From contig JBDHWW010000048.1 in NCBI GenBank assembly GCA_039810425.1, forward strand, positions 1-21,488: 21,488 nt of DNA, read 5' to 3'. The translations under genes were made by a program, and so were the position numbers. Source of the stretch: Pseudobdellovibrionaceae bacterium (GTDB taxonomy: Bacteria > Bdellovibrionota > Bdellovibrionia > Bdellovibrionales > Bdellovibrionaceae). Numbering within the stretch: the stretch's first letter is position 1; each line of letters begins with the position of its first letter. Of this stretch, positions 5,371-21,435 are shown piece after piece. The notes beneath the pieces were generated by a model, which did not search any database, was not told the origin of the DNA, and saw only the letters and a program-made list of their open reading frames with translations.

Positions 5371-5403
5371 AAGTCAATTCTGAAAAGCGACCTGGTACCT
5401 TTT
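5371..5403 (-). repeat. 33-bp dispersed REP-like repeat, copy 1 (minus strand reads AAAAGGTACCAGGTCGCTTTTCAGAATTGACTT)
   Basis: Exact reverse complement of 21262-21294. Contains the imperfect palindrome AAAAG-gt-ACC-a-GGT-cg-CTTTT and overlaps the TAA stop of the upstream minus-strand gene. Confidence 0.9.
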
Positions 5404-5903
5404 TAGGCGGAGAGCTTTGCGCCTTGCATGATGGTTGGCCAGAACCAATCCAGCATCGGGTCTTCTGAGATCACTTCGTGCAAAAAAATCTGTGGCGGAG
5501 CTTTGAATTTGAGCTTGCCGATTTCGTACTCGAGATCATCAAAACCCGGGCCAAAAACATACATATGAAACTCTGGAGCCTGATGAAGCAGCTTTTTAAG
5601 AGCACGGCGCCAAGCTGTGGAATCACTGAACTTTCGCCTTTCCACAACTATGTCGCACGTTATTTGCGAAAGCCTCCAACGCTTAAACAAAGCCTCCTGC
5701 AAAAGCTGCGCGAGCTTCAAATGAAAGTCACGTGGCATCTTCATAAAAAGTTCCTGCGAACCCATGATTGAAATCAAATCCATTTCAGGCGCCAAATCCT
5801 GCGCCTGACGCAAATCTGATAACACTTCCGGCACACGCAAAAGTTGCGTGCGGATTTCGATGTCCACTATGGAATCACCAAGGGTGAAATAAACCACGTT
5901 CAT
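5403..5903 (-). CDS. Hypothetical protein (~166 aa)
   Basis: The ORF track gives 5403..5984, but the first ~27 codons look non-coding. ATG at 5903 (or 5909) is more plausible, with an extended -10-like TGGTACCTT ending 7 nt upstream of 5903. Confidence 0.7.
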   Translation of the reverse strand: MNVVYFTLGDSIVDIEIRTQLLRVPEVLSDLRQAQDLAPEMDLISIMGSQELFMKMPRDFHLKLAQLLQEALFKRWRLSQITCDIVVERRKFSDSTAWRRALKKLLHQAPEFHMYVFGPGFDDLEYEIGKLKFKAPPQIFLHEVISEDPMLDWFWPTIMQGAKLSA

Positions 5904-6055
5904 ACCCATAAAGGTACCACGCCGGCCCCACCAGAACCGAGTCCTGATAGGCCAAGGTCCAGGTCCAATTTTCTTCCTGCCCACAGGCCAGCCTTTTTGT
6001 TAGTCTATGTTTGGACTTGAAGGATTCAAATCCCTGATTTGGCAAAGGAAAATCT

Positions 6056-6988
6056 GTGGCGGTAGATAACAAGAAGTTGAAGAAAAAACGCCCCCCATTT
6101 GAAAAATGGCTTTCATACCTGCTTTTTGTGTTCATTGGTTTTGTTGCCGCCGATTTGTTGATCCTCAGCTACCGCGATCTCATGCTGCCAAACCAGACTC
6201 CCCCACCGCACCCCAAAAAAGCCCTAAGCGACAATAATATTGGCCGTGGCGCTTACAACACTCTTATTTCCCGCAATATTTTTTCTTCTGACGGCGTGAT
6301 TCCCGATGCGTTGATCGCAAAAGGCCAAGACCCAAGCAAGACCGAAGAAACCGCTCCGGTTCCTTCACAATTACCACTGACTCTTGTTGGTACTTTGGTT
6401 CACTCAAACCCTGATAAGTCGATCGCAGCCATCGAAATCAAAGGCAAAAGCCAGACCCTGTCTTACACGCCAAAGAGAAACATCGAAAACATGGCGACAC
6501 TGCTCAAAGTGGAGCGCCAAAAAGTGATCTTACGCAATCTTAACAGCAATGTGCTTGAGTACATCGAGATGAAGCCTTTCGGGAACCAGAAAGTTGCTTT
6601 CGGGGCGGCGCCCCCCGCGGCACCGGCGACTGGTGGCGGCGGCGATGTTAAAGACTTGGGTGACAACAAATTCATGATCAAGCGCGCTGACTTGCAAAAA
6701 TACTTAAACGATCTTTCCAGCATTTTGATGCAGGCTCGCGCGGTTCCTTCGCGCGATAAAGTGACCGGCGAAGTGAATGGCTACCGCATCGTGGATTTCC
6801 AACCAAATAGTATCTTCTCGCAGTTGGGAATCCAACGCATGGACCTCATTAAGGGAGTGAACGGTGAAACCGTGGATACCCCTCAAAAGGCCATGGAGCT
6901 TTTTAATATGTTTAAAAACTCGAATGAAATTAAAATGACTGTTGAACGCGGTGGACGCACTGAAACTCTTCAGTACAATATTCAGTAG
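6056..6988 (+). CDS. gspC: Type II secretion protein GspC (TM + HR domain + PDZ)
   Basis: N-terminal TM, RNIF motif, L.LVGT, QARAVP, PDZ-like S.FSQLGI...DLI..VNG; first gene before the secretin; GTG start with AAAGGA SD. Confidence 0.92.
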   Translation: MAVDNKKLKKKRPPFEKWLSYLLFVFIGFVAADLLILSYRDLMLPNQTPPPHPKKALSDNNIGRGAYNTLISRNIFSSDGVIPDALIAKGQDPSKTEETAPVPSQLPLTLVGTLVHSNPDKSIAAIEIKGKSQTLSYTPKRNIENMATLLKVERQKVILRNLNSNVLEYIEMKPFGNQKVAFGAAPPAAPATGGGGDVKDLGDNKFMIKRADLQKYLNDLSSILMQARAVPSRDKVTGEVNGYRIVDFQPNSIFSQLGIQRMDLIKGVNGETVDTPQKAMELFNMFKNSNEIKMTVERGGRTETLQYNIQ

Positions 6989-7033
6989 TTTTTTCCGTTT
7001 TGTGATTAGTATCCGCAAAGGAAGGTGGATGAC

Positions 7034-9268
7034 ATGAAGGTAAAAAGAAGACCGAAGACAGCGCTTGGAATTGCTTCTTTGCTCACGACTCAAATTGCAC
7101 TTGCGCAGGGTTTTCCTCCTCCGCCACCAATGCCATCTATGAATAACTTTCCACCACCCCCTCCCGTCAACGTGCCGGCGGGGAACAACGAAACAACGAT
7201 CGGCCCCTCGGGCTCCGATAAACCAGGCGCTCTCAACAAAAATCAACAGAGCAAGTTTGCAAAAGCGGGCCTTGAAGACATCACAAATGAAAACTTTCCG
7301 GAAACGATTGAATCTTTCGACTTCCCGAACGTTGAAATCACGGACGTCATCAAAGCGATCTCAGAGCTCACGGGTAAAAACTTTATCATTGATCCTGGCG
7401 TGCGTGGCAAAATCACCATCGTTGCACCCTCTAAAATCACCGTTGCCGAGGCCTACAAAGCTTTCTTGTCCGCCCTCGCTATCAATGGCTTTACAGTTGT
7501 TCCAAGTGGTAGTTTCTTAAAAATCAAATCCGCAAGAAACGCGCAACGTGACAGCATCGAGACCTACTCTGGCGCCTACTATCCGAACTCGGACCAAATG
7601 ATCACCCGTATTATCCACTTAAAGCATATTCAAGCCGACCAAGTGAACCGTGACCTTCGTATTTTGTCGTCTAAAGACGGTGAAATGTCTGTTTATACGG
7701 CGACAAACTCTTTGATCCTCTCAGACTACGGTTCCAACATTGATCGCGTGATGAAAATCATCAGCCAGCTTGATGTTCCAGGCTTTGAGGACCAAATCGA
7801 AGTGATTCCGGTGAAGTACGCAAAGGCGAAAGACCTTGCTGACCTCGTTGATAAAATTGTGAATAAAGGCCAAAAAAGCACGGGCACCGCTCCTGGTTCC
7901 TTCTCCGCCGGCGTGCCGCGCTTTACCCGCTCAACCGGTGGCGCGAGTGCCCAGCAAGGAACCAGCTTTTTTATGGCTATCCCTGAAGACCGCACAAACT
8001 CCCTCATCGCGATGGGAAATAAAGCCGGTATCATCCGTTTAAAGAAATTGATCGCCCAATTGGATTTCCGCCCGCCGTCCGGCGGCTCTGGTGGCGTTTA
8101 CGTTTATTACGTAAAAAACGGCGTTGCTAAGAATATCGCGCAAACTCTTCAGGGTGTCGCGAAAGATGCGGCGCCAAAACCAATGGGCGGAAGCCTGCTG
8201 AGTCCCCTCGGTGGCAATCCGACTGCCCAGCAAGCGGAAGTCTTCGGGAGTGATGTAAAAATCCAGGCGGATGAAGCCACAAATTCACTTGTTATTACTG
8301 CAAGCAAACAAGACTACGAAACCGTTTTGCATATTTTAAAGCAGCTCGATATCGCCCGTGACCAAGTGTTTGTTGAGACCGTAATCATGGAAATGGCGAA
8401 CAGCGACGCAACAAACTGGGGCATCGGCTACTACAAGTACCAAGACGGTGCCGGTAAAGTCGGTTTCTCGAGCAATATCAGTTTGACAGATATGTTATCA
8501 CCAACAGGCGGCACAGGAGCCACTCTTGGCTTCGGCAGCGGCGATACGGTGACCGTGACAAATCCAATCGATAAGAGCTCCATCACAATCCCCAGCCTGA
8601 TCGGGTTTATCAACTTCATTAAGTCGAATACAAAAGCCAACATTCTTTCAACTCCCCAAGTTCTCGCTTTGGATAACCAAACAGCCGAGATTGAAGTGGG
8701 TGATAAAGTTCCTGTCAGCATCAACTCGACGACAAATGCAGCCGGCCAGATCACGAACTCCGCAAACTTCGAAGAAGCGACGATTAAGCTCACAATTAAG
8801 CCATTTATCAGCCCGGCCTCTGAAACAATCCGCATGGAAGTGGATCAAAAAATCAAGCAGTTGACCCAGGTTGCGGCTTTGCCTAAGAATCTTTCTGACA
8901 ATTCCCAGCCTTTGGCGACTCGTAACATCAAAACAACCCTCGTAATCAAAAACGAAGACACTGCCGTGTTGGGTGGTTTAATTCGCGACCGCGATTCTGA
9001 AACAGTTTCTAAGGTGCCTCTCTTGGGGGACCTGCCAATCATTGGCTGGTTGTTTAAAAGCCGCCAATCGACGAAAGAGAAAGTGAACCTCTTGGTGTTC
9101 TTAACCCCGAAGATCATTCGCAATCCGGCGGACCAAAAATCAGTCGTAGATCGCAAACTTGGTGAGCGCTTGAAGCATATTAAAGCTCAAGGCGGCAACG
9201 ATCCTTTTGGTGGTACTGTTGACAGACTTGGCAAAAAGACGTCGCAAGTGATTGACGATAACGAGTAA
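7034..9268 (+). CDS. gspD: Type II secretion secretin GspD
   Basis: N0 motif FPNVEI.DVIK.ISELTGKNFIIDPGVRGKITI; N-domain TNSL repeats; QVFVE; ILSTP...LDNQTAEIEVG; secretin signature GGLI...SKVPLLGDLPIIGWLF. ATG 7034 is preferred over GTG 7025 on SD spacing. Confidence 0.97.
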   Translation: MKVKRRPKTALGIASLLTTQIALAQGFPPPPPMPSMNNFPPPPPVNVPAGNNETTIGPSGSDKPGALNKNQQSKFAKAGLEDITNENFPETIESFDFPNVEITDVIKAISELTGKNFIIDPGVRGKITIVAPSKITVAEAYKAFLSALAINGFTVVPSGSFLKIKSARNAQRDSIETYSGAYYPNSDQMITRIIHLKHIQADQVNRDLRILSSKDGEMSVYTATNSLILSDYGSNIDRVMKIISQLDVPGFEDQIEVIPVKYAKAKDLADLVDKIVNKGQKSTGTAPGSFSAGVPRFTRSTGGASAQQGTSFFMAIPEDRTNSLIAMGNKAGIIRLKKLIAQLDFRPPSGGSGGVYVYYVKNGVAKNIAQTLQGVAKDAAPKPMGGSLLSPLGGNPTAQQAEVFGSDVKIQADEATNSLVITASKQDYETVLHILKQLDIARDQVFVETVIMEMANSDATNWGIGYYKYQDGAGKVGFSSNISLTDMLSPTGGTGATLGFGSGDTVTVTNPIDKSSITIPSLIGFINFIKSNTKANILSTPQVLALDNQTAEIEVGDKVPVSINSTTNAAGQITNSANFEEATIKLTIKPFISPASETIRMEVDQKIKQLTQVAALPKNLSDNSQPLATRNIKTTLVIKNEDTAVLGGLIRDRDSETVSKVPLLGDLPIIGWLFKSRQSTKEKVNLLVFLTPKIIRNPADQKSVVDRKLGERLKHIKAQGGNDPFGGTVDRLGKKTSQVIDDNE

Positions 9269-9282
9269 CGGAGTAGACCCTG

Positions 9283-10977
9283 ATGGCTTCAATGGATATT
9301 TCAAGTATTCTGCAAAAGAGTACTTCACTCACGAATGACCAGATCAAGTCGATTCTGAAGAATCCTTCGGTCTTGCGTCCCGTGAGTGTCGGCGAGGCTC
9401 TTTCCCATAAAGAATACTCCACCGCCGACGAACTTCTCGGCGATCTCTGCAAAGAGATGGGGCTTGATTTCATTAAAGACATTCCCGTGAACGACATCTC
9501 TGCGGACCTCGTTCGTGATATTCCCATCAACTACGCGAAAACCAACTCGGTCCTCCCCTACAAAGATGAGGCCGAAGCGGTGACGGCCCTGACCAGCAAC
9601 CCGCTCAATCTCAAGGCCATGGACGACCTTCGCGTCCTCTTTGGGAAAAAGATTAAGCCCCTGATCACAACAAACTCAAAAATCCAAGACGCCATCAACC
9701 GCGTCTATGAAAAGTCCACTGCGAATCTTTCAGGCCTTGATGAAATTGAAGCTGAAGATTATGACCTCGAAGAATCAACGATCGATCTTCTCGAGGCTGG
9801 CGAAGACGATGCGCCGGTGATTAAGCTGGTGAATAGCCTTCTTTTCCGTGCGGTCAAAGAAAAAGCGTCCGATATCCACGTAGAACCTTATGAAAAAGAC
9901 ATCGTCGTGCGCTTCCGCATCGACGGTATATTGTTCGACATTTTCAAGCCGCCTAAAAAATTACAAAACGCGATCACATCCCGTATCAAAGTTATGGCGA
10001 ACTTAAACATCGCTGAGAAGCGATTGCCTCAGGACGGCCGCATCCCGCTGAAAGTCGGCGGAAAAGATATTGATATTCGTCTTTCCACCGTACCCACCGC
10101 TTTCGGTGAGCGCGTGGTCATGCGTCTTCAAGATAGATCCAACGTCGTTCTCGAACTCGAACAATTGGGCTTCTCTCCGGACACCTTGAAAAAACTGGAC
10201 GGCGACTTGCTGCTGAGAACCTACGGGATCTTGCTCGTCACCGGTCCGACCGGCTCCGGTAAGTCGACGACGCTTTATGGTTGTCTTAGTAAATTGAATC
10301 AACCCGACGTCAACATCCTGACAGTCGAAGATCCGGTGGAACAACGTATTCATGGAATCGGCCAGGTGCAGGTCAATGCGAAGATCGGTTTGACGTTCTC
10401 CTCGGGCTTGCGGTCCTTCCTTCGTCAAGACCCTGACATCATCATGGTCGGTGAGATTCGTGACTTGGAAACAGCCGAGCTCGCAATCACCTCGTCGATG
10501 ACGGGTCACTTGGTTTTATCCACACTGCATACGAATGACGCCGCCGGCGCCTTCCCACGTTTATTTGACATCGGGGTTGAGCCTTTCTTGATTGCAACGT
10601 CGATTTTGGGTGTCGTTGCGCAACGTCTCGTGCGCGTTCTCTGCCCGCACTGCAAAGTGCCTTATGAGCCTTCGGATTTTGAAATCAACGCTCTGGGCGT
10701 GACTCGCACGCAAGTCCAGGAAGGCAACGTCTGCAAAGCGGTGGGTTGCAACCACTGTAATCAAAAAGGTTATCTCGGCCGAAGCGTTATTCAAGAACTG
10801 CTGGTCGTCAATGACGATATCCGTTCTTTAATTTTGCAACGCAAAGACGGTAACACTATTAAACGTCAGGCTGTGGGCGGCGGAATGAAAACTTTCCGTG
10901 ACCATGGTATTAGTAAAGTTCTTTCGGGCATTACGTCGATCGAGGAACTGAACGCCAACACGCAATTGGATATTTAA
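9283..10977 (+). CDS. gspE: Type II secretion ATPase GspE
   Basis: ASDIHVEP, EKRLPQDGRI, Walker A GPTGSGKS, TVEDPVE, LRQDPDIIMVGEIRD, TGHLVLSTLHTND, Zn motif CPHC...CNHC. Confidence 0.98.
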   Translation: MASMDISSILQKSTSLTNDQIKSILKNPSVLRPVSVGEALSHKEYSTADELLGDLCKEMGLDFIKDIPVNDISADLVRDIPINYAKTNSVLPYKDEAEAVTALTSNPLNLKAMDDLRVLFGKKIKPLITTNSKIQDAINRVYEKSTANLSGLDEIEAEDYDLEESTIDLLEAGEDDAPVIKLVNSLLFRAVKEKASDIHVEPYEKDIVVRFRIDGILFDIFKPPKKLQNAITSRIKVMANLNIAEKRLPQDGRIPLKVGGKDIDIRLSTVPTAFGERVVMRLQDRSNVVLELEQLGFSPDTLKKLDGDLLLRTYGILLVTGPTGSGKSTTLYGCLSKLNQPDVNILTVEDPVEQRIHGIGQVQVNAKIGLTFSSGLRSFLRQDPDIIMVGEIRDLETAELAITSSMTGHLVLSTLHTNDAAGAFPRLFDIGVEPFLIATSILGVVAQRLVRVLCPHCKVPYEPSDFEINALGVTRTQVQEGNVCKAVGCNHCNQKGYLGRSVIQELLVVNDDIRSLILQRKDGNTIKRQAVGGGMKTFRDHGISKVLSGITSIEELNANTQLDI

Positions 10978-10979
10978 TT

Positions 10980-12197
10980 ATGCCTATCTTCGAGTACAAG
11001 GGCCTAGCCAGGGACGGAAGAAATGTTAAAGGGACTCTCGATGCCGAGAATCTTCGCGCGGCCCGTGCTCGTCTGAAAAAGGACGGCATCTTCGTCACTG
11101 AAATCCGCGATAAGAAAAAAGGTACTGCGACAAAAAAACGCGGTGGCGGCAATCGTGGCAAGGCCTCGGTTCAAGAGCTTTCTTTGATGACCCGTCAGTT
11201 GGCCGTGCTCGTCAAAGCGAACATTCCCCTCGTGGATTGCTTGACGGCAGTTTCGGAGCAAGTAGAAAACCCTGTGCTTGCCGAAGCGATTGCCGACTGT
11301 AAGAACATGGTCAACGAAGGCAGTCCGTTCTACAAAGCTCTCGCAAAGTATCCGAACCTGTTTGATAAGATTTATATCTCGATGGTGGAAGCCGGGGAAA
11401 TGTCCGGAAGCCTCGATGTCATCCTCGTGCGCCTCGCCGAATTTACCGAGGCTGCGGCAGAATTGCGCTCGAAAGTCAGCAGCGCGATGACCTACCCGAT
11501 CATCATGCTCGTGGTCACTTTTGGCTTGCTGTCGTTGATGTTCATCTTCGTCATTCCAAAAATGGTGACAGTGTTTGAGTCCGCACCGGGTCTGACGTTG
11601 CCGTGGTACACTGTTGTGCTTATAAATATCAGTACCTTTATGGTGAACTACTGGTACCTTGTGTTTGGCCTCCTGTTCATGATTTATATGATTTTCAACA
11701 GCTGGAAAAAATCGCCCAGCGGCGCTGAACAATGGGATGGCATCTCATTGAACCTTCCGATCGCGGGACCGGTCGTTAGAATGGTGGCGGTTTCACGCTT
11801 CACCAGAACTCTGTCGACGCTCTTAACGGGTGGTGTGCCGATGTTGCAAGCTCTCGACATCGTCCGTAACGTTGTGGACAATCACGTTCTTGCTTTAGCT
11901 ATTGATGATGCCCGCAGCAATATCAGCGAAGGGGAATCTATCGCAGGACCCCTAAAAAAATCGGGCCAGTTTCCGCCAATTGTGATTCACATGGTCAATA
12001 TCGGCGAAAAAACCGGTGAGCTTGAAACCATGCTGAGCCAGGTCTCAGACGCTTATGATTTCCAGGTTAAAAATAAAGTCGACGGGCTAACGGGTTTAAT
12101 GGGTCCAGTCGTCATTGTGATCATGGGTCTGGTTATTGCGACGATTGTGTTCTCCGTGATGTTACCTATGTTTGACATGACTAGTGCCTTTGGCTAA
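10980..12197 (+). CDS. gspF: Type II secretion inner-membrane platform protein GspF
   Basis: MPIFEYKG start, TRQLA.L, AGEMSGSL, AMTYP, RF.RTL.TLL.GGVP, GEKTGEL; three TM segments. Confidence 0.97.
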   Translation: MPIFEYKGLARDGRNVKGTLDAENLRAARARLKKDGIFVTEIRDKKKGTATKKRGGGNRGKASVQELSLMTRQLAVLVKANIPLVDCLTAVSEQVENPVLAEAIADCKNMVNEGSPFYKALAKYPNLFDKIYISMVEAGEMSGSLDVILVRLAEFTEAAAELRSKVSSAMTYPIIMLVVTFGLLSLMFIFVIPKMVTVFESAPGLTLPWYTVVLINISTFMVNYWYLVFGLLFMIYMIFNSWKKSPSGAEQWDGISLNLPIAGPVVRMVAVSRFTRTLSTLLTGGVPMLQALDIVRNVVDNHVLALAIDDARSNISEGESIAGPLKKSGQFPPIVIHMVNIGEKTGELETMLSQVSDAYDFQVKNKVDGLTGLMGPVVIVIMGLVIATIVFSVMLPMFDMTSAFG

Positions 12198-12231
12198 AGT
12201 CATCTTCTGAACTCATGCGGAGGCTAATACA

Positions 12232-12657
12232 ATGATTTCGAACTCTTCAAACAAGTCTTTCTTGGACAACCAAAAAGGTATGACTCTGATTGAGATCATG
12301 ATCGTCATCGCGATTCTTGGTGGTTTAATGGCACTCTTGGCGCCAAAATTCTTGGGCCAAAAAGATAAAGCCAACGTTGGCCAAGCAAAGATCCAGATGG
12401 GTCAAATAGCGAATGCGCTAAGCATGTACTACAACGACTGCGGTAAATTCCCTGCCTCTTTGGACAACTTAATACAACAAGATGCCAACTGTGCGAACTG
12501 GGGCCCGGAGCCTTACTTGAAAAAAGACCAAATCGACCCTTGGGGAAATCACTACGTTTATGAATTGAATGGTGGCGATTACACTCTGAAATGCCTTGGT
12601 AAAGACGGGCGCGAGGGCGGCACTGGATTTAATGCGGATATTCAGTACGAGCAATAA
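12232..12657 (+). CDS. gspG: Major pseudopilin GspG
   Basis: Prepilin motif QKG|MTLIEIMIV, DPWGN.Y.Y and the C-terminal Ca-binding-type loop LGKDGREGGTGFNADI; GGAGG SD. Confidence 0.95.
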   Translation: MISNSSNKSFLDNQKGMTLIEIMIVIAILGGLMALLAPKFLGQKDKANVGQAKIQMGQIANALSMYYNDCGKFPASLDNLIQQDANCANWGPEPYLKKDQIDPWGNHYVYELNGGDYTLKCLGKDGREGGTGFNADIQYEQ

Positions 12658-12672
12658 ACTCTAAGGAGTTTC

Positions 12673-13266
12673 ATGAATAAAAGGGGCTTCACCCTCATTG
12701 AAGTCATGATCGTGATCGCTATTATTGCCGGTCTGATTGCCGTGGGAGCTCCCCGCCTTCTTAAAAAAGACACCAATATCAAAACCGTGGCACGTCAGCT
12801 CACGGTTCTCGTCAAAGAAGTCCGCAACCAAGCAAAACTTTTTAATTCCACTTACCGCATCGTCATCCGCATGGAGCAAGGTCAAGAGTCTTGGTGGGTT
12901 GAAAAAGCCAGCGGCCCGACTCTGATCGACCCTGAAAAACTAAAAGAAGATTATGAAGGCAAAAGTAAAAAAGACGATAAAGACAAAGATGCTCCTCCGC
13001 CGCTTTTCCAAATAGACAAAAGGTTGTCGAAGAAGGAAAAAACCCTTCCGCCAAATCTGCACTTCAAACAAGTAGAAACCATCAATATGTCTCAGCCCGT
13101 CACAAGTGGGCTTGCGTATATTCATTTCTTTCCAGAAGGCCTTCTCGAGGCTTCTGCCATTCAAATCACCGACAACAAAAACACCTGGACGCTTGTCTTT
13201 AACCCCCTAACAGGTCAAGCTGATATTGTTGAAAAAGAAACCAGCTTAAAGGATATAAGTCGGTGA
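12673..13266 (+). CDS. gspH: Minor pseudopilin GspH-like
   Basis: KRG|FTLIEVMIV; I.FFPEG and V.NPLTG motifs of the GspH/FimT type; AAGGAG SD; position after gspG. Confidence 0.85.
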   Translation: MNKRGFTLIEVMIVIAIIAGLIAVGAPRLLKKDTNIKTVARQLTVLVKEVRNQAKLFNSTYRIVIRMEQGQESWWVEKASGPTLIDPEKLKEDYEGKSKKDDKDKDAPPPLFQIDKRLSKKEKTLPPNLHFKQVETINMSQPVTSGLAYIHFFPEGLLEASAIQITDNKNTWTLVFNPLTGQADIVEKETSLKDISR

Positions 13267-13790
13267 CCGAAAACAGAAACGGCTTCACGTTGCTAGAGAC
13301 ACTGCTCGCGGTAGTGATTCTCTCTATGGGTATTTTGCTCTTGACCCAGTCATGGAGCGGAAGTTTTTTGCGTATTCGAAAGACGCAGCTGAATCAAGAC
13401 GTCGCCGCTTTGCTTGAGCGCAAAATGAATGAAATCGACCTTGAGTTCCGCGACAAACCCCTAGATACCATTCCCGAGGAAAAAGAAGACGACTTTGGAT
13501 CCGAATATCCACAGTACAAATGGAAGATGATCTCACGCGAGTTCCAGATGCCGAACATGTCTTCAATCCTGATGCAGCAAGATGGCGGCGCCAACGACAT
13601 GATGATGATGATGATTCAGCAACTCACTGAGCATCTGTCTAAAACCATCAAGGAAGTTAAAGTCAGCGTGATCTATACCGGTGGCAAGAAACCGCTGGAG
13701 TATTCGATCGTCACGTATTTTGTCGATTACAATAAGCCGTTGGCTATCGGCGGATCCACGGGTGCCGCGCCGGGCGGGGCAGGTCCATAG
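13263..13790 (+). CDS. gspI: Minor pseudopilin GspI-like
   Basis: NG|FTLLETLLAVVIL prepilin motif; GTGA overlap with the gspH stop; operon position. Confidence 0.8.
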   Translation: MTENRNGFTLLETLLAVVILSMGILLLTQSWSGSFLRIRKTQLNQDVAALLERKMNEIDLEFRDKPLDTIPEEKEDDFGSEYPQYKWKMISREFQMPNMSSILMQQDGGANDMMMMMIQQLTEHLSKTIKEVKVSVIYTGGKKPLEYSIVTYFVDYNKPLAIGGSTGAAPGGAGP

Positions 13791-14623
13791 TGGCTTCTTC
13801 CCGTCTGTTCTCACGGCAGGGTTTTACTCTCATCGAGATGATGATCACGGTGGCCATTCTTGGAACACTGACCGTGCTTGCAACTCAAAGTATTCAACAA
13901 GCCATCCGTCAGAAAGTAAAAATCCAGGAACAGATCGACGATGTCTCGCGTATGCGCGACGCTCTTCGTTTGATGGAAGCTGACATTAACCAAGCTTATC
14001 ACTATCGCGACATTGAAAAGGAAATCACGGCGTTGGTGAATAAGCCGCAGCAGGCTGCGAATTCGCCGCCGGGAATGCCAACGCCGATTCCGATTCAAAC
14101 ACCGACGCCTCCGCCGAATCCGGACGAAGCAACTCGCATGGACCCGACCACTCAGTTCATGGGCACCGACAACACTGTCGACTTCGTCACAATGAACAAT
14201 GCGCGGATGATGCGCAACTTGAAACAAGCCGACTTCATGGAGGTCGGTTACTCGCTGAAGTCCTGCAAAAGCCTGACAGGCGATAGAGGCTCTTCGCAGT
14301 GTTTATGGCGCAGAACCACAAGCTGGGTGGATGACGATGTCACCAAAGGTGGCGATGAGGTTGTGTTGTTGGAAAATATCACCGAGTTCAAATTACGTTA
14401 CATTGGCAAAGGCAAAGAAGATTGGGTTAATGGCTGGCGCACGGACAATGGCGGCGACACCGTGACAAAAGGAAACTTTCCTGCGGCTGTTGAGATCTCG
14501 ATGACGATTGAGCATGGCACTGGCGACAAAAAGAAAAAGTATTCGATGCAGATTATTGCGCGAATCCATTTCCCGAATAACGATGAGAGCAAAAATGCAA
14601 ACAGCGCGACCAGTGGGCCTTAG
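13790..14623 (+). CDS. gspJ: Minor pseudopilin GspJ-like
   Basis: QG|FTLIEMMITVAIL; ME.DI.QA; EVGY.L; LWRR; LLENI.EF.LRY; W...W; P.AVEI. Confidence 0.87.
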   Translation: MASSRLFSRQGFTLIEMMITVAILGTLTVLATQSIQQAIRQKVKIQEQIDDVSRMRDALRLMEADINQAYHYRDIEKEITALVNKPQQAANSPPGMPTPIPIQTPTPPPNPDEATRMDPTTQFMGTDNTVDFVTMNNARMMRNLKQADFMEVGYSLKSCKSLTGDRGSSQCLWRRTTSWVDDDVTKGGDEVVLLENITEFKLRYIGKGKEDWVNGWRTDNGGDTVTKGNFPAAVEISMTIEHGTGDKKKKYSMQIIARIHFPNNDESKNANSATSGP

Positions 14624-15803
14624 GCTCCTAAAAAACAATCGCGGAATGGCCTTGATCATGGCTGTTACTTGCGTGCTTTTGATTTCTTACATCGCCATGG
14701 AAGTCTCCTACGACTCATTGGTGGAGTACAACGTCAACGTCAACTCCCTCAATCGCCTGAAGGCTTACTATGCGGCCCGTGCCGGCGTGGATTTAAGCCT
14801 GCTTCGAATTAAAACTTTCCAGCAAGCTTCGGCTCAATTTGGCAAGCAGTTGGGGGGCCAGTCGGAAATGCTGGATCAAATCTGGAAGTTTCCGTTTGCG
14901 TGGCCGGTGCCAATGCCGGACGGCTTAACCGGTGTGGACAAAGATCAGATTAAATCCGCCCTGAAGGAATCCATTATGGATGCCGCCTATGTTGTCACGA
15001 TTGAAGACGAAGGCTCGAAGTTAGATCTCAGCGACCTTGCTTCACCTTCGAAAGTTTTGGCGGAGTCCACCCGCCGCCGTTTGTTGGATATTTTCCAAAA
15101 TAAACTTAAGAGCGACCAGGAGTTTCAGCGCAAGTACGGCAACTTCCGCTTTGAAGAACTTGTAAATGCGATCACCGATTGGCAATCGAAAAACCGTACG
15201 GGCGTGGACGGCGGCGATAAGCGTTCTGGCTACAGCGGTTACCCAGAAAACTACCCGCCGAATCGCGGTTTTCGAACCTTGCAAGAGCTCCGCCTTGTGA
15301 GCGGCATGAATGAGGACTTTTACGATCTGCTGGAACCGGCCCTCACAATATACGGGATGAAAGCGATCAATCCGAATCAAGCCAGCAAGGAAATTCTTAA
15401 GTCGCTGGACCCCGAAATCACCGACGAGATCGCTGATGCCGTCATTAAGCGCCGCGAAAGTCCGAATGAGGGCGGTCCCTTTAAAAACAAAGAGGATTTC
15501 TGGGGCTTCATTACAGGCCGCGGGGCCCGCCTTGGCGCTAAAACCGAAGAGACTCCTTTGATCTTTGATAAGGTCGTGAACTTCAAAATCAGAAGCACCG
15601 GCGAGTACGCCGGAGTGTCCCGTGAGATCACGGTCATCGTGATGGATTTGCAAACAATCGCGAGTACTCTGAAGGGCTACGTCGAAAAAGAAAAACAGCA
15701 ACAACAGCAAAATCCGCAGGCAAAGCCGCAAAACCCAGCCCAAAGTCAGAGCGCAACCCTTCCCAAAGGAGCTCCAAGGATTGTATACTGGGGCGAGCGC
15801 TAA
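14595..15803 (+). CDS. gspK: Minor pseudopilin GspK
   Basis: NRG|MALIMAV lacking Glu5 (a GspK hallmark); AYYAARAG, I.DE.SKLD, AI.DW, EL.LV.G, IN.N.A. Start is probably ATG 14595 (or GTG 14613) rather than 14508. Confidence 0.9.
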   Translation: MQTARPVGLRLLKNNRGMALIMAVTCVLLISYIAMEVSYDSLVEYNVNVNSLNRLKAYYAARAGVDLSLLRIKTFQQASAQFGKQLGGQSEMLDQIWKFPFAWPVPMPDGLTGVDKDQIKSALKESIMDAAYVVTIEDEGSKLDLSDLASPSKVLAESTRRRLLDIFQNKLKSDQEFQRKYGNFRFEELVNAITDWQSKNRTGVDGGDKRSGYSGYPENYPPNRGFRTLQELRLVSGMNEDFYDLLEPALTIYGMKAINPNQASKEILKSLDPEITDEIADAVIKRRESPNEGGPFKNKEDFWGFITGRGARLGAKTEETPLIFDKVVNFKIRSTGEYAGVSREITVIVMDLQTIASTLKGYVEKEKQQQQQNPQAKPQNPAQSQSATLPKGAPRIVYWGER

Positions 15804-15833
15804 GCACTCGTAAGATTTAAAAAAAGGCGAAAA

Positions 15834-17504
15834 ATGAGATCTGTTGGTATCGACATTGGCAGTAGTAGCATTAAAGTTGTTGAGGTGCTGACGACAAGCA
15901 AGGGTTTTCAAGTCACTCAATGCTTCGAACGCCCGCTCGGCCTCAATCCAGCTCATGACCAAGAAATTGAAATCATCGAGTTTCTCCGTGAGATCTCCGC
16001 GAAGTACGATCCGGCGCAAACCCGCTACTGCTTGGTCCTTCGTCAGGACCAAGTAAGTATCCGTAATAAAATCTTCCCATTCAGCGACAGGATGAAAATT
16101 TCTAAGAGCTTGCCATTCGAGCTCGAAGAAGAAATTCCATTCTCGGGAGATAACTCTATCTTTGATGCGAAGATCGTACGCACAATCGGGGTTACTGCCG
16201 AAGTTTTAGCCTGTGCGGCGCCGAAGCACCATATCCGCACTCTTCTTCAGCGCTGCTCTGACGCGAACATCGAGCCGGCTTTGATTTCCACTGAAGGAAC
16301 AGCCTTTGCAAATATCTACGAAAAATGGAATGAAGCTCCGCCGGCTCACCCCACAACCGACACGACTCTGCTCGGAGAGCAGGAAAAGGTCGAGCGTCCG
16401 ATGCATTTGACTCTGAACATGGGGCACACACGCACCCTCGTTTGCGCTTTTGAAGGCAACTCTCTGATCGGTGTTCGCACGATTCTTTGGGGTGCGAAAA
16501 ATATCGCGGACTCTGTTGCGAAGAAATATGAAATCCCGTACTTGGACGCTTTAAAAGAGGTGCAAAACAAAGCTTTCATTCTGACGAACAAGCAAGGCGC
16601 GACTTTTGACCAAATCACCTTCTCGGAGACGATTGCGAAATCAGTTCGCGAGCTTGTGCGCGACTTGCAGCTTTCTATTTTGGAATTTAAGAGCGAGTTC
16701 AACGCCGTGATCACTCAGATTGGATTGACGGGCGGTTCTTCAGCGATTAAAAACTTGGGCCCGTTCCTGACTCAACAGCTTGAGTTGCCCGTGAACAAAG
16801 TCTACCCACTGGATATGATTCCAAACGTGCTCTTTGAAAAGGGCCCAAAAACGGACACCACCTTTGGTTTAGCTCTCGGCATTGCGATCGAAGGCCTTAA
16901 AAAACCGCGCAACCCCGCCGTCAACTTCTTACGTGGCGAATTCGCAAAACAAAACCACTTTGCCCGCAACATGTGGGAAAAATGGGGCCCGACATTCAAA
17001 ACAGCGGCGGCCGCGATGCTCGTGTTCTTCATTTACTCAATGATGCGCGAGAGCTTTTCGATGAATCTTGCCGACCGCGCGGAAGAGGCCCTAAAAACTC
17101 AAGCCAAGAACGTGGCAAAATTGACCGGCAAAAAGGCGACCGAAGCCAATATCAAGAAATACATCCGTGATAATAAAAAACGCGCTGCGGATTTAAAAAC
17201 CCTTGCGAACGTCGCAACGATGAACTCCGCGCTTGAGATCGTCAAAAAAATCAACGACGCAACTCCGGCAAAGAATTCGGTCACATTGGACGTTAAAGGC
17301 GTTCACATCCGTGATAGCGAGGTGTCCGTTGAAGGGTACGTGAAGAACCCAAATGAACTCACGGTCCTTCAACAGGCCCTGACAAACTTGTCCGTGGACG
17401 GCAAAGTGAATAGTGGCCATTCACAATTGCCTGCAGCCGCGGGCAAAACAGCGTTCTCATTGAACTTTAAAGTCGACCGCGGCATTACTAAAAACATCCA
17501 ATAG
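15834..17504 (+). CDS. gspL: GspL-position protein: PilM-like actin-fold cytoplasmic domain + TM + PilN/GspL-like periplasmic domain
   Basis: VGIDIGSSSIKVVE, LPFELEEEIPF, LTGGSS.IKNL, VNFL.GEF, a single TM (AAAAMLVFFIYSMM) and a C-terminal V.VEG...F.L.F pattern; lies between gspK and gspM. Confidence 0.85.
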   Translation: MRSVGIDIGSSSIKVVEVLTTSKGFQVTQCFERPLGLNPAHDQEIEIIEFLREISAKYDPAQTRYCLVLRQDQVSIRNKIFPFSDRMKISKSLPFELEEEIPFSGDNSIFDAKIVRTIGVTAEVLACAAPKHHIRTLLQRCSDANIEPALISTEGTAFANIYEKWNEAPPAHPTTDTTLLGEQEKVERPMHLTLNMGHTRTLVCAFEGNSLIGVRTILWGAKNIADSVAKKYEIPYLDALKEVQNKAFILTNKQGATFDQITFSETIAKSVRELVRDLQLSILEFKSEFNAVITQIGLTGGSSAIKNLGPFLTQQLELPVNKVYPLDMIPNVLFEKGPKTDTTFGLALGIAIEGLKKPRNPAVNFLRGEFAKQNHFARNMWEKWGPTFKTAAAAMLVFFIYSMMRESFSMNLADRAEEALKTQAKNVAKLTGKKATEANIKKYIRDNKKRAADLKTLANVATMNSALEIVKKINDATPAKNSVTLDVKGVHIRDSEVSVEGYVKNPNELTVLQQALTNLSVDGKVNSGHSQLPAAAGKTAFSLNFKVDRGITKNIQ

Positions 17505-17512
17505 GTGAGCTG

Positions 17513-18205
17513 ATGAACTTTGATGACATTAAGGACAATCTAAAATCTCAGCTCGGTCAGACCTGGTCACGTTTCGAGGACAGCTCGGCGTACAACCAGC
17601 TTCGAGATCGCTTCGAAAATCTGACGCCGACAAACCAGAAACTTGTGCTCGTGGGCGCCGGCGCTCTCACCGCTTTGCTGATCTTCTCAATTCCATTTTC
17701 TTACTACTCCACTTCCAGTGAGTACGTAACGACATACGAAGACAAACGTGGTTTGATTCGTGAGCTCTTGAAAGTGACTCGGGAATCCAACGAGGTCCCG
17801 GATCTGCCGACCGCACCTAAAGCGGATATGCTGAAGAACGCGATCGAAGGTCAGCTGAATATGGCAAAACTTCTTCCAGAGCAAATGAAAGGGATCGAGG
17901 TGATGGCGGCGGAGACGGGCCTGATTCCCAAAGGCTTGCTGGAAAGCGGCTTGCGCGTGAGTCTTGCTAAACTCAATCTTCGCCAGATCATCGATATCGG
18001 CTACAACATCCAGGCGATCAGCTCGAGTGTTAAAATGAATGCGCTCAATATCACGGCGAATCCCGAAGACCCACGTTACTTTGACGTGGAGATGAGATTG
18101 GTTTCTTTGGCAGTGCCTCAGGCTCACATTGAAATGCCGGATGTTGCCGATGAAGAAGGCGGCGGTAAGGCAAAAAAGCCGGCGTTTAAGAGAGGAAATC
18201 GCTAA
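17513..18205 (+). CDS. gspM: Type II secretion protein GspM-like
   Basis: RFENLTP..QKLV followed by a single TM, a helical segment and a ferredoxin-like C-terminal pattern; operon position. Confidence 0.72.
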   Translation: MNFDDIKDNLKSQLGQTWSRFEDSSAYNQLRDRFENLTPTNQKLVLVGAGALTALLIFSIPFSYYSTSSEYVTTYEDKRGLIRELLKVTRESNEVPDLPTAPKADMLKNAIEGQLNMAKLLPEQMKGIEVMAAETGLIPKGLLESGLRVSLAKLNLRQIIDIGYNIQAISSSVKMNALNITANPEDPRYFDVEMRLVSLAVPQAHIEMPDVADEEGGGKAKKPAFKRGNR

Positions 18206-19173
18206 TGGTGACCGCGATTCGTAAGTTGTTCGGCATCATCTTCAGCTCAAAACTCAAAATCCTCGTCATGATCCTCTCGACGCTGGTTTTCTTGCTGGTT
18301 CTTTTTCCGATTAATGACCTCGGCGATTTTGTTTCTTCCCAAGTGGCGCGCTTAACCGGCAACAAAGTGTTCTTGCAGTTTGAAGAACTCAAAATGTCTC
18401 TTTTCCCCGCTCCGGGCATGAAGGTCGAACAAGTGTTTGTTGAAGCTCAAGGCGTTCCGGGAATTTCCGTTCAGGAAATCCGCTTTGCTCCAGCGGTGAT
18501 GGGTATGATCTCGCAAAAGCCTTACGGCACTGTCGATGCAAAAGGTTTATTTAAAGGCGATGTGCAGATTTCTGTAAAATCCGGTTCCCGCTCTGAAAAC
18601 GGCGGCGAAAGACAGCGTGTGGAAATCAGCGCTAAGAAGCTGAGCCTGCAGGATTTGCGCGAAGTGGCCCGTTTGCCGGTGATGATGAAGGGGAAACTTG
18701 ATCTTGAATCCACGGCGCTTGTGGACCTCTCGTTCACTGAGCAACCGGACGTTGATGTGAACCTCAACATCTCGCAATTCGAGCTCCCGCCGTCGAATGT
18801 GAATACGCCGATGGGCCCGCTCACCATGCCTGATTTAAAACTCACCAGCGTTGAAATTAAGGGCCGTTTGGCCGGTGGCAAGCTCATTATTGAGCATGGT
18901 CAAATCGGTAAAGAGAGCGACGAAATGCGTGGCACAATCACCGGGAACCTCGATCTGTCTTTGGCGAACCAAGGGGGCGTGATCAATCCGGTTATCGGCG
19001 GTTACACGTTCAACATCGATCTTCGTATGAAGAATAATTTCCTCAATCGCGCCTCGACGTTCCTCATTTTAGTTGATCAGTACAAAACGCCGACTGCTGA
19101 AGGTGCGCAGTACAAATTCAAAGTTTCTGCGGCAAATACCATGATGCCGCCATCAATCGGCGCCGTGCGTTAG
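18205..19173 (+). CDS. gspN: Type II secretion protein GspN-like
   Basis: N-terminal TM ending LFP..DL, beta-rich body, last gene of the operon; TAATG coupling to gspM. Confidence 0.8.
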   Translation: MVTAIRKLFGIIFSSKLKILVMILSTLVFLLVLFPINDLGDFVSSQVARLTGNKVFLQFEELKMSLFPAPGMKVEQVFVEAQGVPGISVQEIRFAPAVMGMISQKPYGTVDAKGLFKGDVQISVKSGSRSENGGERQRVEISAKKLSLQDLREVARLPVMMKGKLDLESTALVDLSFTEQPDVDVNLNISQFELPPSNVNTPMGPLTMPDLKLTSVEIKGRLAGGKLIIEHGQIGKESDEMRGTITGNLDLSLANQGGVINPVIGGYTFNIDLRMKNNFLNRASTFLILVDQYKTPTAEGAQYKFKVSAANTMMPPSIGAVR

Positions 19174-19355
19174 TCCGCTGAACGACACTTCTTGTCCGAT
19201 TTATACTCCTTCATCTTTTTCCGCCACTAATCCCGTTGACCGCCGGGTTGGTCCTTGATTTGCTCATTGTGCAGGCAAACCCGGGAGCTTTTTTAAGTCT
19301 TTATTGACAAGACTCTCACTAACTACAAAAACCTTATAGTCTCATGGGAGGGATT

Positions 19356-19796
19356 ATGTCTGGTATAAATAAAGTTATCATCGTAGGCCGCTTGGGCGCT
19401 GACCCTGAAGTAAAAGCCGTTGGCCAAGGAACGACTGTGACCCGTTTGAATATTGCAACGAGTGAAAATTGGATGGGCAAAGATGGTCAAAAACAAGAAC
19501 GCACTGAGTGGCATCGTGTTGTTGTTTGGGGCAAGCTTGCGGAAATCTGCGGTAAGCATCTGAGCAAGGGCCGCCAAGTCTACATAGAGGGCCGTTTGCA
19601 GACCCGTCAGTGGGAAGACCAACAAGGCCAGAAAAAATACACAACTGAGATTATCGCAAACACTGTGCAATTCCTTGGTTCCGCTAGCGGTGAGCGTTCT
19701 AACGAAAACAAGCAATCTGCCGGTGGGGATGATTTCGGCTATCAAGATTTCGGACCGGAACCGAGCTTCAATAGCTCTGACGATATTCCGTTCTAA
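19356..19796 (+). CDS. ssb: Single-stranded DNA-binding protein
   Basis: [44 protein letters not shown], acidic tail DDIPF; GGGAGG SD supports ATG 19356. Confidence 0.98.
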
Positions 19797-19818
19797 GACT
19801 TTCGAACATTTTTAACTT

Positions 19819-19859
19819 AGAAAAGACCCGTTTAAAGAAAACGGGTCTTTTCTTTTTTT
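19819..19859 (+). terminator. Intrinsic terminator after ssb
   Basis: 15-bp stem AGAAAAGACCCGTTT-aaaga-AAACGGGTCTTTTCT followed by a T run. Confidence 0.92.
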
Positions 19860-19885
19860 AGCACCTCTGCGTAGAATTTATATCT

Positions 19886-20272
19886 ATGCTTCGCAGTCTT
19901 TATTTTCTTCTTTGTATGATGCTTTTGAGTTCCTGCTCGCTTTACAGCTCCGCGGGCCGTAAGCAATTTGAAGAAAAGGCTCCGAACTCCATTCAATCCT
20001 TCACACTCCAAGGCTGTCGGGAAATGAGCGCCGCTGAAGCCTGGTTGCGCGGGGAGTTTCCAAGTAGCAATCACGAACTGATTGAAATGCATCCCGACTA
20101 CGAAGTTTGGGGAAGCACTCTCGATGATGGTCAGGTTGAAGTGACTGTTGTCTCCCAGGACAATACGGCAACAGAGTCTTGTATTTACAAATTCGAGTCG
20201 AAGAAGATCTGGCAAATCTATAAAAAGAGTTTTTTAGACGAGCTTTCTCGCAGTCTTGTTAGCCTTGACTGA
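19886..20272 (+). CDS. Hypothetical lipoprotein (128 aa)
   Basis: Short hydrophobic leader with lipobox LSS|C at Cys17; two further Cys in the mature part. Confidence 0.8.
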   Translation: MLRSLYFLLCMMLLSSCSLYSSAGRKQFEEKAPNSIQSFTLQGCREMSAAEAWLRGEFPSSNHELIEMHPDYEVWGSTLDDGQVEVTVVSQDNTATESCIYKFESKKIWQIYKKSFLDELSRSLVSLD

Positions 20273-20372
20273 TCATTTCTATCCTAGCCTATGGTCTACG
20301 TCCGGATGGACACTGGACATTTTCTGCATGAAAATATGAGGGAATATGGTCCACCAACCAGGAGTCCTTAGC

Positions 20373-21251
20373 GTGAAGAAATTCTCGGTTTTTTTCGCTG
20401 TTTCATTGTTTTTTGCGAGCTATTCCGCACTGGCCGCAAAAATTTCCCAGGTAAAAAATAATAAAGTCATGATCGAGCTTGACGGCGAAGGCGCTTCAAC
20501 GGGGACGGAGTTTTTTGCATTAAATCCGCAGAACAAACGCGTCGCTGTCATCAAAGTAACACAAGTCAAAGGCGGCCGCGCCATCGGTGAGATCACCAAA
20601 GGCACAGTCAAGCCTGGTTACCTTTTACAGAACAGAGGCGGCTCTGCGGCGGCGGCAGGTTCCGGTGGCAACTCCGGCACGGATGATTACTACGACCGCA
20701 AACTCAATAGCAAAGTTCACAACGGGAACTCTTGGGGTATCGTTGGCGGTTATTTGATGAACACGATGGCCGTGAAAACCACAAGTATGCAAATCAACAT
20801 GTCGGGGTCAGGCTTCGGCGCTCTTGGTTACTATGATTATGCCTTGTCACCTTCTCTGGTTTTCCGTGGGATGACGGGACTTGAGACGTACAATGTGGCG
20901 GGATCGAACTCCGCCGCTTCTCCGTCCAACTGTACAACAAACTGTGACGTGAAAATCCAGTATTTATCTTTCTACGGTTATGGCCGCTGGAACTTCATGC
21001 AGGGCCAATACAAATCGTGGCTTGGCGCTGGCGCTGGTTACTTGTATCCGATGTCTAAACCTGGTGGCAGCGTTTTCCAAAACAACACCGTGGGCGCGAA
21101 TCAAATCTTCATATTCTCGGCTGGCATGGATTATCGTTTAAGCGCAAAAAACTACATACCTATCTCTCTCGAGTACGGCCTTTACCCAGCCACAGCCTCA
21201 GTCACAGCAAGCATCATCTACCTCCGCGCCGGCTACGCCTGGAACCTCTAA
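20373..21251 (+). CDS. Putative outer-membrane beta-barrel protein with a small N-terminal beta domain and Gly/Ala/Ser linker
   Basis: GTG 20373 with AGGAG SD 8 nt upstream; signal peptide KKFSVFF...SALA; aromatic-rich amphipathic strands; C-terminal beta-signal-like YLRAGYAWNL. Confidence 0.8.
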   Translation: MKKFSVFFAVSLFFASYSALAAKISQVKNNKVMIELDGEGASTGTEFFALNPQNKRVAVIKVTQVKGGRAIGEITKGTVKPGYLLQNRGGSAAAAGSGGNSGTDDYYDRKLNSKVHNGNSWGIVGGYLMNTMAVKTTSMQINMSGSGFGALGYYDYALSPSLVFRGMTGLETYNVAGSNSAASPSNCTTNCDVKIQYLSFYGYGRWNFMQGQYKSWLGAGAGYLYPMSKPGGSVFQNNTVGANQIFIFSAGMDYRLSAKNYIPISLEYGLYPATASVTASIIYLRAGYAWNL

Positions 21252-21261
21252 AAAGGTACCT

Positions 21262-21294
21262 AAAAGGTACCAGGTCGCTTTTCAGAATTGACTT
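21262..21294 (+). repeat. 33-bp dispersed REP-like repeat, copy 2, preceded by a partial tandem duplication (TAAAAAGGTACC, 21249-21260)
   Basis: AAAAGGTACCAGGTCGCTTTTCAGAATTGACTT is the exact reverse complement of 5371-5403. Confidence 0.9.
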
Positions 21295-21339: not shown

Positions 21340-21435
21340 ATGCCAAGAAAAACCCACTTAATTTCGACAGAATATCCGTATCACGTAAATTGCCGGACTC
21401 ATGGCGGACAATTTATTACCTGGAGCAGTAGATAG
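21340..21435 (+). pseudogene. Truncated N-terminal fragment resembling a REP-associated tyrosine transposase (RAYT, Y1/IS200-like)
   Basis: My translation is MPRKTHLISTEYPYHVNCRTHGGQFITWSSR*. The MPR......E.PYHV..R pattern is typical of RAYT/Y1_Tnp N-termini. It stops at 21433-21435 before any HUH motif and lies next to a palindromic repeat. Confidence 0.6.

Follow-up and report, generated by a model that had tools for sequence, protein, structure and literature searches.

Introduction

TIRtrons are elements in which a RAYT-like tyrosine transposase (TIRYT) gene lies within one pair of terminal inverted repeats (TIRs) that have no relation to the GTAG-type repetitive extragenic palindromic (REP) sequences; they form moderately abundant families of single and dimeric copies, and some of their TIRs are partly self-complementary (PMC3733652; this and the other papers cited by accession are represented here by the accessible parts of their text). 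The transposases classified as TnpA_Y1 subclass 2.1 (PMC6006769) correspond to Group 1 of the REP-associated tyrosine transposases (RAYTs), whose genes are flanked by modestly abundant 16-mers, 12 per replicon (PMC5581495). The cellular role of RAYT-type transposases, and why hosts keep them, is a long-standing question. In this study, we analysed a 21,488-nt stretch of DNA from a Pseudobdellovibrionaceae bacterium (contig JBDHWW010000048.1 of assembly GCA_039810425.1; hereafter the window), in which a perfect 33-bp inverted pair brackets a type II secretion system (T2SS) gene block. The right copy is the upstream TIR of a TIRtron-type element that has been broken by an insertion sequence (IS), and the left copy is a solo repeat. 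In the approximately 90 nt beyond the outer end of such repeats, the silent sites of genes are shifted directionally towards C and A.

Structure of the inverted pair and the transposase element

The window is the entire contig C48 of a 3.54-Mb assembly (G000), which was compared with six relatives of the same genus (G001–G006). Positions 5371–5403 and 21262–21294 are exact reverse complements over 33 nt and lie 15,858 nt apart. This is the longest of 126 inverted pairs in the window; the other long perfect one, of 19 bp at 2017–2059, has A/T-rich ends, lies between convergent genes and is likely a bidirectional terminator hairpin. As the initial annotation had described, the pair is exact with its outer ends at gene boundaries (both ends meet stop codons), and no target duplication was found flanking it. 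The same annotation presented each copy as an imperfect 21-nt palindrome with a 12-nt tail. The division into core and tail stands, but 'palindrome' overstates the structure, because the 33-mer forms no stable hairpin when compared with shuffled sequences (DNA fold −1 kcal/mol, z approximately +0.5; RNA folds, z +0.5 and +1.6). An intrinsic terminator or RNA hairpin is ruled out, since the 33-mer does not fold, and the window has no match in Rfam. The features of the repeat and its element are as follows.

5371..5403, minus strand: solo repeat copy (21-nt core and 12-nt tail); identical copy at the orthologous G005 site, none at the site in G001–G004
21249..21260, plus strand: 12-nt partial tandem duplicate of the outer end of the repeat; begins with the TAA (21249–21251) of omp, an outer-membrane protein gene; absent in G005
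21262..21294, plus strand: upstream TIR of the transposase element; partner on contig C36 at 31393–31425
21340..21415, plus strand: codons 1–25 of a RAYT-like Y1/HUH tyrosine transposase gene; remainder on C36
21416..21488, no strand given: end of the multi-copy IS interrupting the transposase gene; the contig breaks here

The transposase fragment, absent from the initial annotation, begins 45 nt past the right copy. In G005 the gene is intact and encodes 215 amino acids, to which the window piece corresponds over residues 1–27 (96%) and C36 over residues 25–214 (84%). The G005 locus consists of omp, a TIR, the 215-aa gene, an inverted TIR and the convergent relA/spoT gene, and its TIRs are complementary at 36/36 nt. 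The pair in G000 is split over C48 and C36; the C36 partner directly follows the transposase stop and overlaps that of relA/spoT. The interrupting IS end was found 6 times and the other end of the IS 7 times, nearly all at contig ends, and among the seven contigs that begin with this other end only C36 continues the transposase gene. The insertion duplicated TA, and the motif LPAYSPELNP can be read on the C18 copy; from these marks, rather than from a library match, we take the element to be a likely member of the IS630 family. It is also present on C18, C49, C59, C81, C8, C29, C50, C63, C83 and C110 with identical ends. This IS630-like element has been recently active, and one copy inactivated the transposase gene.

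The intact G005 protein matches Pfam Y1_Tnp with 31.3 bits (cut-off 23) and NCBIfam NF047646 with 67 bits, under the cut-off of 80. Its sole sequence match of solved structure is the TnpA_REP of Escherichia coli, 4ER8 (E 3.9e-7), which is also the best fold match (E 4e-9) of a predicted, alignment-based structure model (predicted local distance difference test score 92). Among 28 homologues the motif NHFH is nearly invariant, YVYRNP is present and S140 is invariant; no C-terminal helix-turn-helix (HTH; Bac_DnaA_C, HTH_23 or HTH_28) was matched by Pfam in any of the 28 at E<=0.1. Two sequences were dropped from alignment A1: L134, which has an in-frame stop, and L042. Named relatives of the transposase belong to Bdellovibrio and other Bdellovibrionota.

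The repeat is far more numerous than the pair. A short-word count, as the initial annotation had suggested, gave 17 copies of the 21-nt core in G000 at <=1 mismatch (14 exact; reversed control 0). They represent 14 distinct 33-mers and are arranged as three tail-to-tail dimers, two element ends and nine solo copies. The full 33-mer has three exact copies, so that the pair is not unique; the third copy is on C18. Among 41 genomes searched, the core pattern was present in three of one genus (G000, 17 copies; G005, 36; G002, 4; control 0) and in none of the other 38. This bears out the earlier suggestion of a lineage-restricted family, as does the cognate gene directly beside the right copy for the suggested tie to a Y1/HUH (RAYT-like) gene. 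Recent spread, which had been proposed from the identity of the two copies, is contradicted: by flank comparison, 15 of the 17 G000 copies have a G005 copy at the orthologous place, and the left copy is identical in both; the two genomes are 86–87% identical over the block. Therefore, the family has been conserved or homogenised rather than recently spread. Nor is it a canonical REP, as it has neither a GTAG/CGTC tag nor a stable hairpin.

Directional shift of silent sites at gene ends

Eleven G000 genes have their stop at a copy, and in their last 30 codons 117 of 154 four-fold sites carry A or C (0.76), compared with a background of 0.47 in 2821 other G000 genes; 0/200,000 random sets reach the observed value. 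In 15-codon steps away from the repeat, the proportion falls from 0.88 to 0.64, 0.47 and 0.39. The second repeat family of this genome, which has 23 copies and flanks an intact transposase homologue on contig C10, gives 124/179 in 13 genes (0/100,000), and genes that face elements in other genomes show 0.70–0.73 within 90 nt and 0.41–0.45 past 400 nt. That genes ending in CTAA are simply A/C-rich is ruled out, as 366 such genes stand at 0.47.

Both copies in the window are flanked by a shifted gene end.

5406..5495, minus strand: last 30 codons of the 193-aa hypothetical gene, C/A-shifted; A+C at 9/12 sites here and 9/12 in G005, 17/49 in four repeat-free orthologues
21159..21248, plus strand: last 30 codons of omp, C/A-shifted; A+C at 16/19 sites, versus 36/67 in four repeat-free orthologues

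All nine genes compared, including these two, exceed their own repeat-free orthologues (9/9), which are at background (0.49 in the last 15 codons and 0.44 in the next 15). The changes in G000 are also one-way. Where the outgroup majority is G or T, A or C is found in G000 at 28/37 sites near the repeat, versus 43/177 far from it (Fisher 6e-9); where the majority is A or C, G or T is found at 1/27 near, versus 57/98 far (Fisher 1e-7). This strict polarisation leaves aside three outgroup orthologues bearing related repeats and three bearing the same repeat; with the three related-repeat orthologues kept, the near counts are 27/35 and 1/28. As the genomes are kin, these p-values overstate independence, and the separate loci are the two repeat families and nine genes. 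No report of a compositional shift beside REP or TIR repeats, or of repeats of this type in Bdellovibrio, was found in the full-text literature searched, which covers few subscription journals. Whatever its cause, codon-usage and synonymous-divergence (dS) estimates are distorted at these gene ends.

Possible causes of the shift

Mutation linked to nicking is the leading but tentative explanation for the skew. Repeated nicking at the repeat would leave a 3'-OH on the gene side, and resection with gap repair would lay bare the other strand, on which A and C would deaminate. In the strand that reads towards the repeat, T>C and G>A would thereby become fixed, in a gradient fading away from it. 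Seen from the complementary strand, T>C and G>A are A>G and C>T, the deamination pattern of exposed single-stranded DNA. The 28 polarised changes comprise 16 T>C, 5 G>A, 4 G>C and 3 T>A, so that 21 are of the two expected types.

A mutational bias of this kind would follow the strand of the repeat, and the support for strand over gene polarity is mixed. coaBC contains an in-frame copy of opposite orientation, past which the sense strand in G005 is rich in G and T (17/20, versus 47/95 in five repeat-free orthologues). The 12 non-coding outer flanks surveyed in other elements (locus L024 was dropped from this survey and from that of inverted pairs) show a C-over-G skew of +0.21 to +0.24. Both observations support strand rather than gene polarity. 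The copies in question, at C70:5893–5984 in G000 (coaBC-like) and L073 in G005, lie in the interdomain linker, whose length is about the same as in repeat-free orthologues, indicating replacement rather than addition; the G002 linker has similar residues and lacks the DNA motif.

Several results weigh against the mutational explanation. Seven of the 28 changes are transversions, which deamination does not explain, and one of the eleven genes (on C14) is unskewed (4/11). The coaBC zone in G000 gives only 11/20, and the stretch before the linker is A/C-rich in three coaBC orthologues that lack the repeat, too. In five genes whose start lies at an outer end, a reverse skew is absent (G+T 0.52 at 63 sites, versus 0.52), and 17 non-coding flanks of G000 and G005 copies are unskewed, nine of them beside G005 copies tied to another repeat. 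Furthermore, four-fold divergence between G000 and G005 is 42/115 near the repeat versus 186/459 far from it (p 0.46), and A/C flips are not significantly higher near it (17/79 versus 16/92, p 0.56). Neither measure supports a raised substitution rate near the repeat.

Selection on mRNA or translation, by which, for example, the last codons would be kept unpaired beside the repeat RNA or termination or stability would be tuned, is a somewhat unlikely alternative. It draws on the absence of raised divergence and on the five unskewed gene starts just described, as well as on the effect being strongest where a gene reads towards the repeat; the action of E. coli REPs as 3' untranslated region regulators (bioRxiv 10.64898/2026.03.23.713779, accessible part) also counts in its favour. 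It is opposed by the skew in coaBC of G005, which keeps to the strand of the repeat, by the skew in non-coding flanks of other elements, and by frames that read away from the repeat, in which A+C on the repeat's strand is 21/32 in G000 and 35/45 in G005 (these frames were mechanically called, and some are doubtful). In addition, for weak selection to change many silent sites per gene almost completely in one direction seems much to ask.

Returning to nick-linked mutation, it is possible, though we hold this more loosely still, that domesticated TIRYT transposases of the Bdellovibrionales are site-directed, strand-specific mutators, with every repeat copy marking a nick site whose repair rewrites the approximately 100 bases outside it towards C and A. 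If so, the repeat family would amount to a mobile mutational tool that installs itself at gene ends, and the skew would preserve, like a fossil, the places and the duration of cutting by a RAYT-type enzyme in vivo. A mutational origin would be in vivo evidence that fixed repeats are nicked repeatedly, as well as an undescribed local mutational bias; a selective one would reveal a hitherto undescribed constraint on the last codons of genes beside such repeats.

Spread of the repeat copies

At 10 of the 17 copies, the stop of a long frame lies −6 to +3 nt from the outer end, compared with 34 of 2038 control AAAAGG words. The A-run of the left copy, for example, overlaps the TAA (5405–5403) of the 193-aa gene. 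In other genomes, where the end of an element points at the end of a gene, it adjoins the stop of that gene in 20/30 and 17/24 cases. Repeat-free orthologues terminate at the same position; therefore, the repeat overlaps a pre-existing stop. Stop-codon donation is known for GTAG REPs (PMC3733652), and TnpA_REP cleaves at C|T (PMC8266576). The dinucleotide before the A-run is CT in 10 and CG in 6 of the 17 copies, a resemblance to the REP cleavage site that is suggestive by analogy.

By the mechanism that we propose, the transposase would recognise the repeat on single-stranded DNA, nick at the C|T (or C|G) of its outer end and, by a presumed strand transfer, join it to further C|T sites. A copy that lands on a C-TAA stop would do no harm, since the TAA is restored by the A-run of the repeat; such copies would therefore survive in a gene-dense genome. 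The 12-nt duplicate at 21249–21260, whose junction with the full right copy is a C|T step, fits a second C|T transfer event. No depleted dinucleotide, as cleavage-site avoidance would leave, remained after correction for base composition (relative values 0.87–1.22). Clean empty and filled junctions are limited to a single short-gap case (L056 of G005 versus C14), which is unpolarised; the other sites differ by replacement.

The copies were probably spread by the cognate transposase, whose activity is predicted. Among 30 homologue loci, 24 of the 25 with a full-length gene are flanked by an inverted pair of their own, in most cases of AAGGTRCC type (one of the 24 is marginal), compared with none of the 5 short or partial ones. 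Of the named loci, a set that may overlap the first, 16 of 20 usable ones in Bdellovibrionota and 10 of 30 in other phyla carry their own pair; 3/23 and 6/36 loci, without a match or too near an end, were left out of this survey. A degenerate motif of the repeat gives 14–77 matches in 10 of the 41 genomes, every one of which holds a full-length homologue, and 0–3 matches in 12 genomes without a homologue. Two points detract from this interpretation. The motif, which does not suit every TIR type, has few matches in 18 of the 28 genomes besides G000 that have a homologue (E<=1e-10), and the cognate gene is broken in G000. The join between C48 and C36 is drawn from G005 and frame complementarity, not from reads.

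Spread by another Y1 protein, either the intact C10 homologue or a multi-copy 163-aa Y1-like element, is improbable. It would accommodate the broken cognate gene, a hybrid dimer of both repeat families at the coaBC-like gene on C70 and eight G005 loci at which the core lies beside a leader common to the 163-aa element. Against it, every full-length homologue lies between repeats of its own type, a separate family of 23 copies goes with the C10 gene, and G001 has neither a full-length homologue nor copies; most copies, moreover, are older than the split between G000 and G005, when the gene was presumably intact.

The C10 gene (C10:38553–39310, L008) belongs to a second intact TIRtron-type element, with its family at 21 other sites, and one copy of that family lies in frame inside a gene on C35. 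The 163-aa gene has an HIH motif and a Y motif unlike Y---Q or Y---NP; it occurs in many copies of 90–97% identity with a structured upstream leader, more than 20 G000 contigs end in it (e.g. C41:53–544, C72, C56 and C103; L003–L007 and L009–L012), and it looks like an active IS-like element. At the eight G005 loci (L055, L064–L069 and L079), the core has TG at its outer end and carries another tail; it is embedded in a larger repeated unit, and the flanks show no C/A skew.

A target preference, in which copies were inserted at gene ends already rich in C and A and nothing was rewritten, is a still weaker alternative, here for the shift rather than for the enzyme. HUH transposases act on single-stranded DNA and pick sites by sequence (PMC8266576), so that unstructured C/A-rich DNA could be favoured, and the repeat-free orthologues of relA and ctaB are mildly A/C-rich (0.64 and 0.58). 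Nevertheless, repeat-free orthologues as a whole lie at background, and in the lineage with the repeat the polarised changes all but share one direction.

Conservation of the bracketed block

The two copies enclose the following region.

5403..21251, no strand given: host block between the copies, comprising the hypothetical gene, gspC-N, ssb, a lipoprotein gene and the outer-membrane protein gene

Profile matches in it are T2SSC, T2SSK, PilM_2 and SSB; the remaining gsp gene names were read from the translations without a profile match and are presumed. The initial annotation had suggested that the inverted pair might serve to invert or mobilise this block. In G005, where both repeats are present, collinearity extends through the two junctions. 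The left copy is missing from G002, where dipZ nevertheless stands to the left and relA to the right, and in G001 and G006 omp adjoins relA directly, with <20 bp between them and without an element. In G001, G002, G005 and G006, omp thus has relA or the element as its neighbour, and in G002 and G005 dipZ is found to the left of the block; the neighbours differ in G003 and G004, and in G006 the left side is a contig end. Swapped junctions (omp beside dipZ, or the 193-aa gene beside relA) were found in none of the six relatives. At the omp–relA site, G002 has a sister element in the opposite orientation (C67:138.8–139.6 kb; L025, L087), the protein of which is 54% identical and sister in the tree with support 99/95, and the empty spacer of G006 resembles a collapsed remnant of two element ends.

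The likely source sample was the sole one listed as containing the stretch, and no RNA data set was listed. In the assembly graph of a run from this sample (X1), one contig corresponds exactly to 5374–21291, since the 33-bp identity collapses in a 31-mer assembly and leaves the block as one contig of ambiguous orientation. The X1 contigs, which drop rare variants, list no inverted joint; an apparent joint between 5406 and 10230 has a 33-nt side and likely reflects another repeat copy. Such repeat pairs can cause mis-orientation in short-read assemblies.

That the pair are recombination sites inverting or mobilising the 15.9-kb T2SS-ssb-omp block is very improbable: the perfect 33-bp identity in inverted orientation would suit it, as would the upstream TIR of G000, which equals the left copy at the sole position where that of G005 differs and may reflect conversion between the two, and the reversed G002 element, which may have flipped between its TIRs or been re-inserted; but G005 is collinear with both repeats present, no relative has a swapped junction, the variable TIR position takes four states over the 17 copies, and the block is also present in genomes without the repeat. 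If anything flipped, it was the 0.75-kb element rather than the block, re-insertion being the alternative. The initial annotation had itself named many genome-wide copies with a constant block orientation as the outcome that would count against inversion, and this is what was found. One observation runs the other way: the expected number of further copies in the 16 kb upstream of the element is approximately 0.07, so that the left copy is somewhat closer than random, which a local hop may equally explain.

Therefore, the T2SS block is context, not cargo of the element, and its bracketing by the two copies is likely incidental. We consider it highly probable that the pair represents a dispersed TIRtron-type repeat and does not mediate programmed inversion. 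The explanation as a whole, comprising the identity of the repeat, its spread, the incidental bracketing and the flank shift, is the likely one.

Two further features touch none of these subjects. A 24-bp tandem repeat in five copies, encoding a Gly-rich peptide unit, occupies positions 1–144 at the contig start. Comparison of C1:168.7–169.1 kb in G000 with L071 of G005 revealed an island-remnant-like insert of approximately 280 bp with a duplicated tRNA 3' end.

Comparison with known systems

As first posed, the pair is ordinary, consisting of a TIRtron end and a solo copy, and the interest of the locus lies in the polar recoding of the flanks. Nothing typical of an invertible segment or composite transposon was observed: the block has one orientation wherever its flanks are shared, none of the six relatives has a swapped junction, and no target duplication flanks the pair. 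Compared with REPtrons, REPs and REPINs, the family shares the predicted TnpA_REP fold (4ER8), REPIN-like inverted dimers and CT at the outer end (PMC3116915, PMC8266576), but it differs from GTAG REPs in having no GTAG foot and no stable hairpin. GT[AG]G occurs in or beside 3 of the 17 copies and CGTC beside 1, neither being conserved; some related TIRs do fold (L033, z −2.6).

The motifs of the transposase fit TnpA_Y1 subclass 2.1, a placement made by motif comparison and not by subclass hidden Markov models. In the accessible text of PMC6006769, this subclass is characterised by NH[YF]H, Y---NP, a conserved serine after the core, a C-terminal extension, low copy number and no canonical REP. 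Two differences stand out: 20 subclass-2.1 TIRYTs carry a C-terminal HTH, which by Pfam all 28 members here lack (subgroup 2.1.1 has a different tail), and no REP-like sequence was reported in that text beside 2.1 genes, whereas nearly all full-length members here have a TIR pair. The word 'Bdellovibrio' is absent from the supplement text checked for subclass 2.1 and RAYT Group 1, as it is from the accessible main text of PMC3733652.

The element works like a TIRtron and fails the tests for a canonical REP: it has an HUH/Y1 gene (intact on the G005 orthologue), a non-GTAG TIR pair and dispersed single and dimeric copies. GGGGWSAS is found in 0/17 copies, a motif that, as far as PMC3733652 describes it, is present in some TIRs only and is not required, and flank recoding is not mentioned in the accessible text of that paper. 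The Bdellovibrionales clade adds to these systems well-defined cognate repeats, a polar flank footprint and cultured carriers, namely B. bacteriovorus (Bd16) and Bdellovibrio sp. HCB strains.

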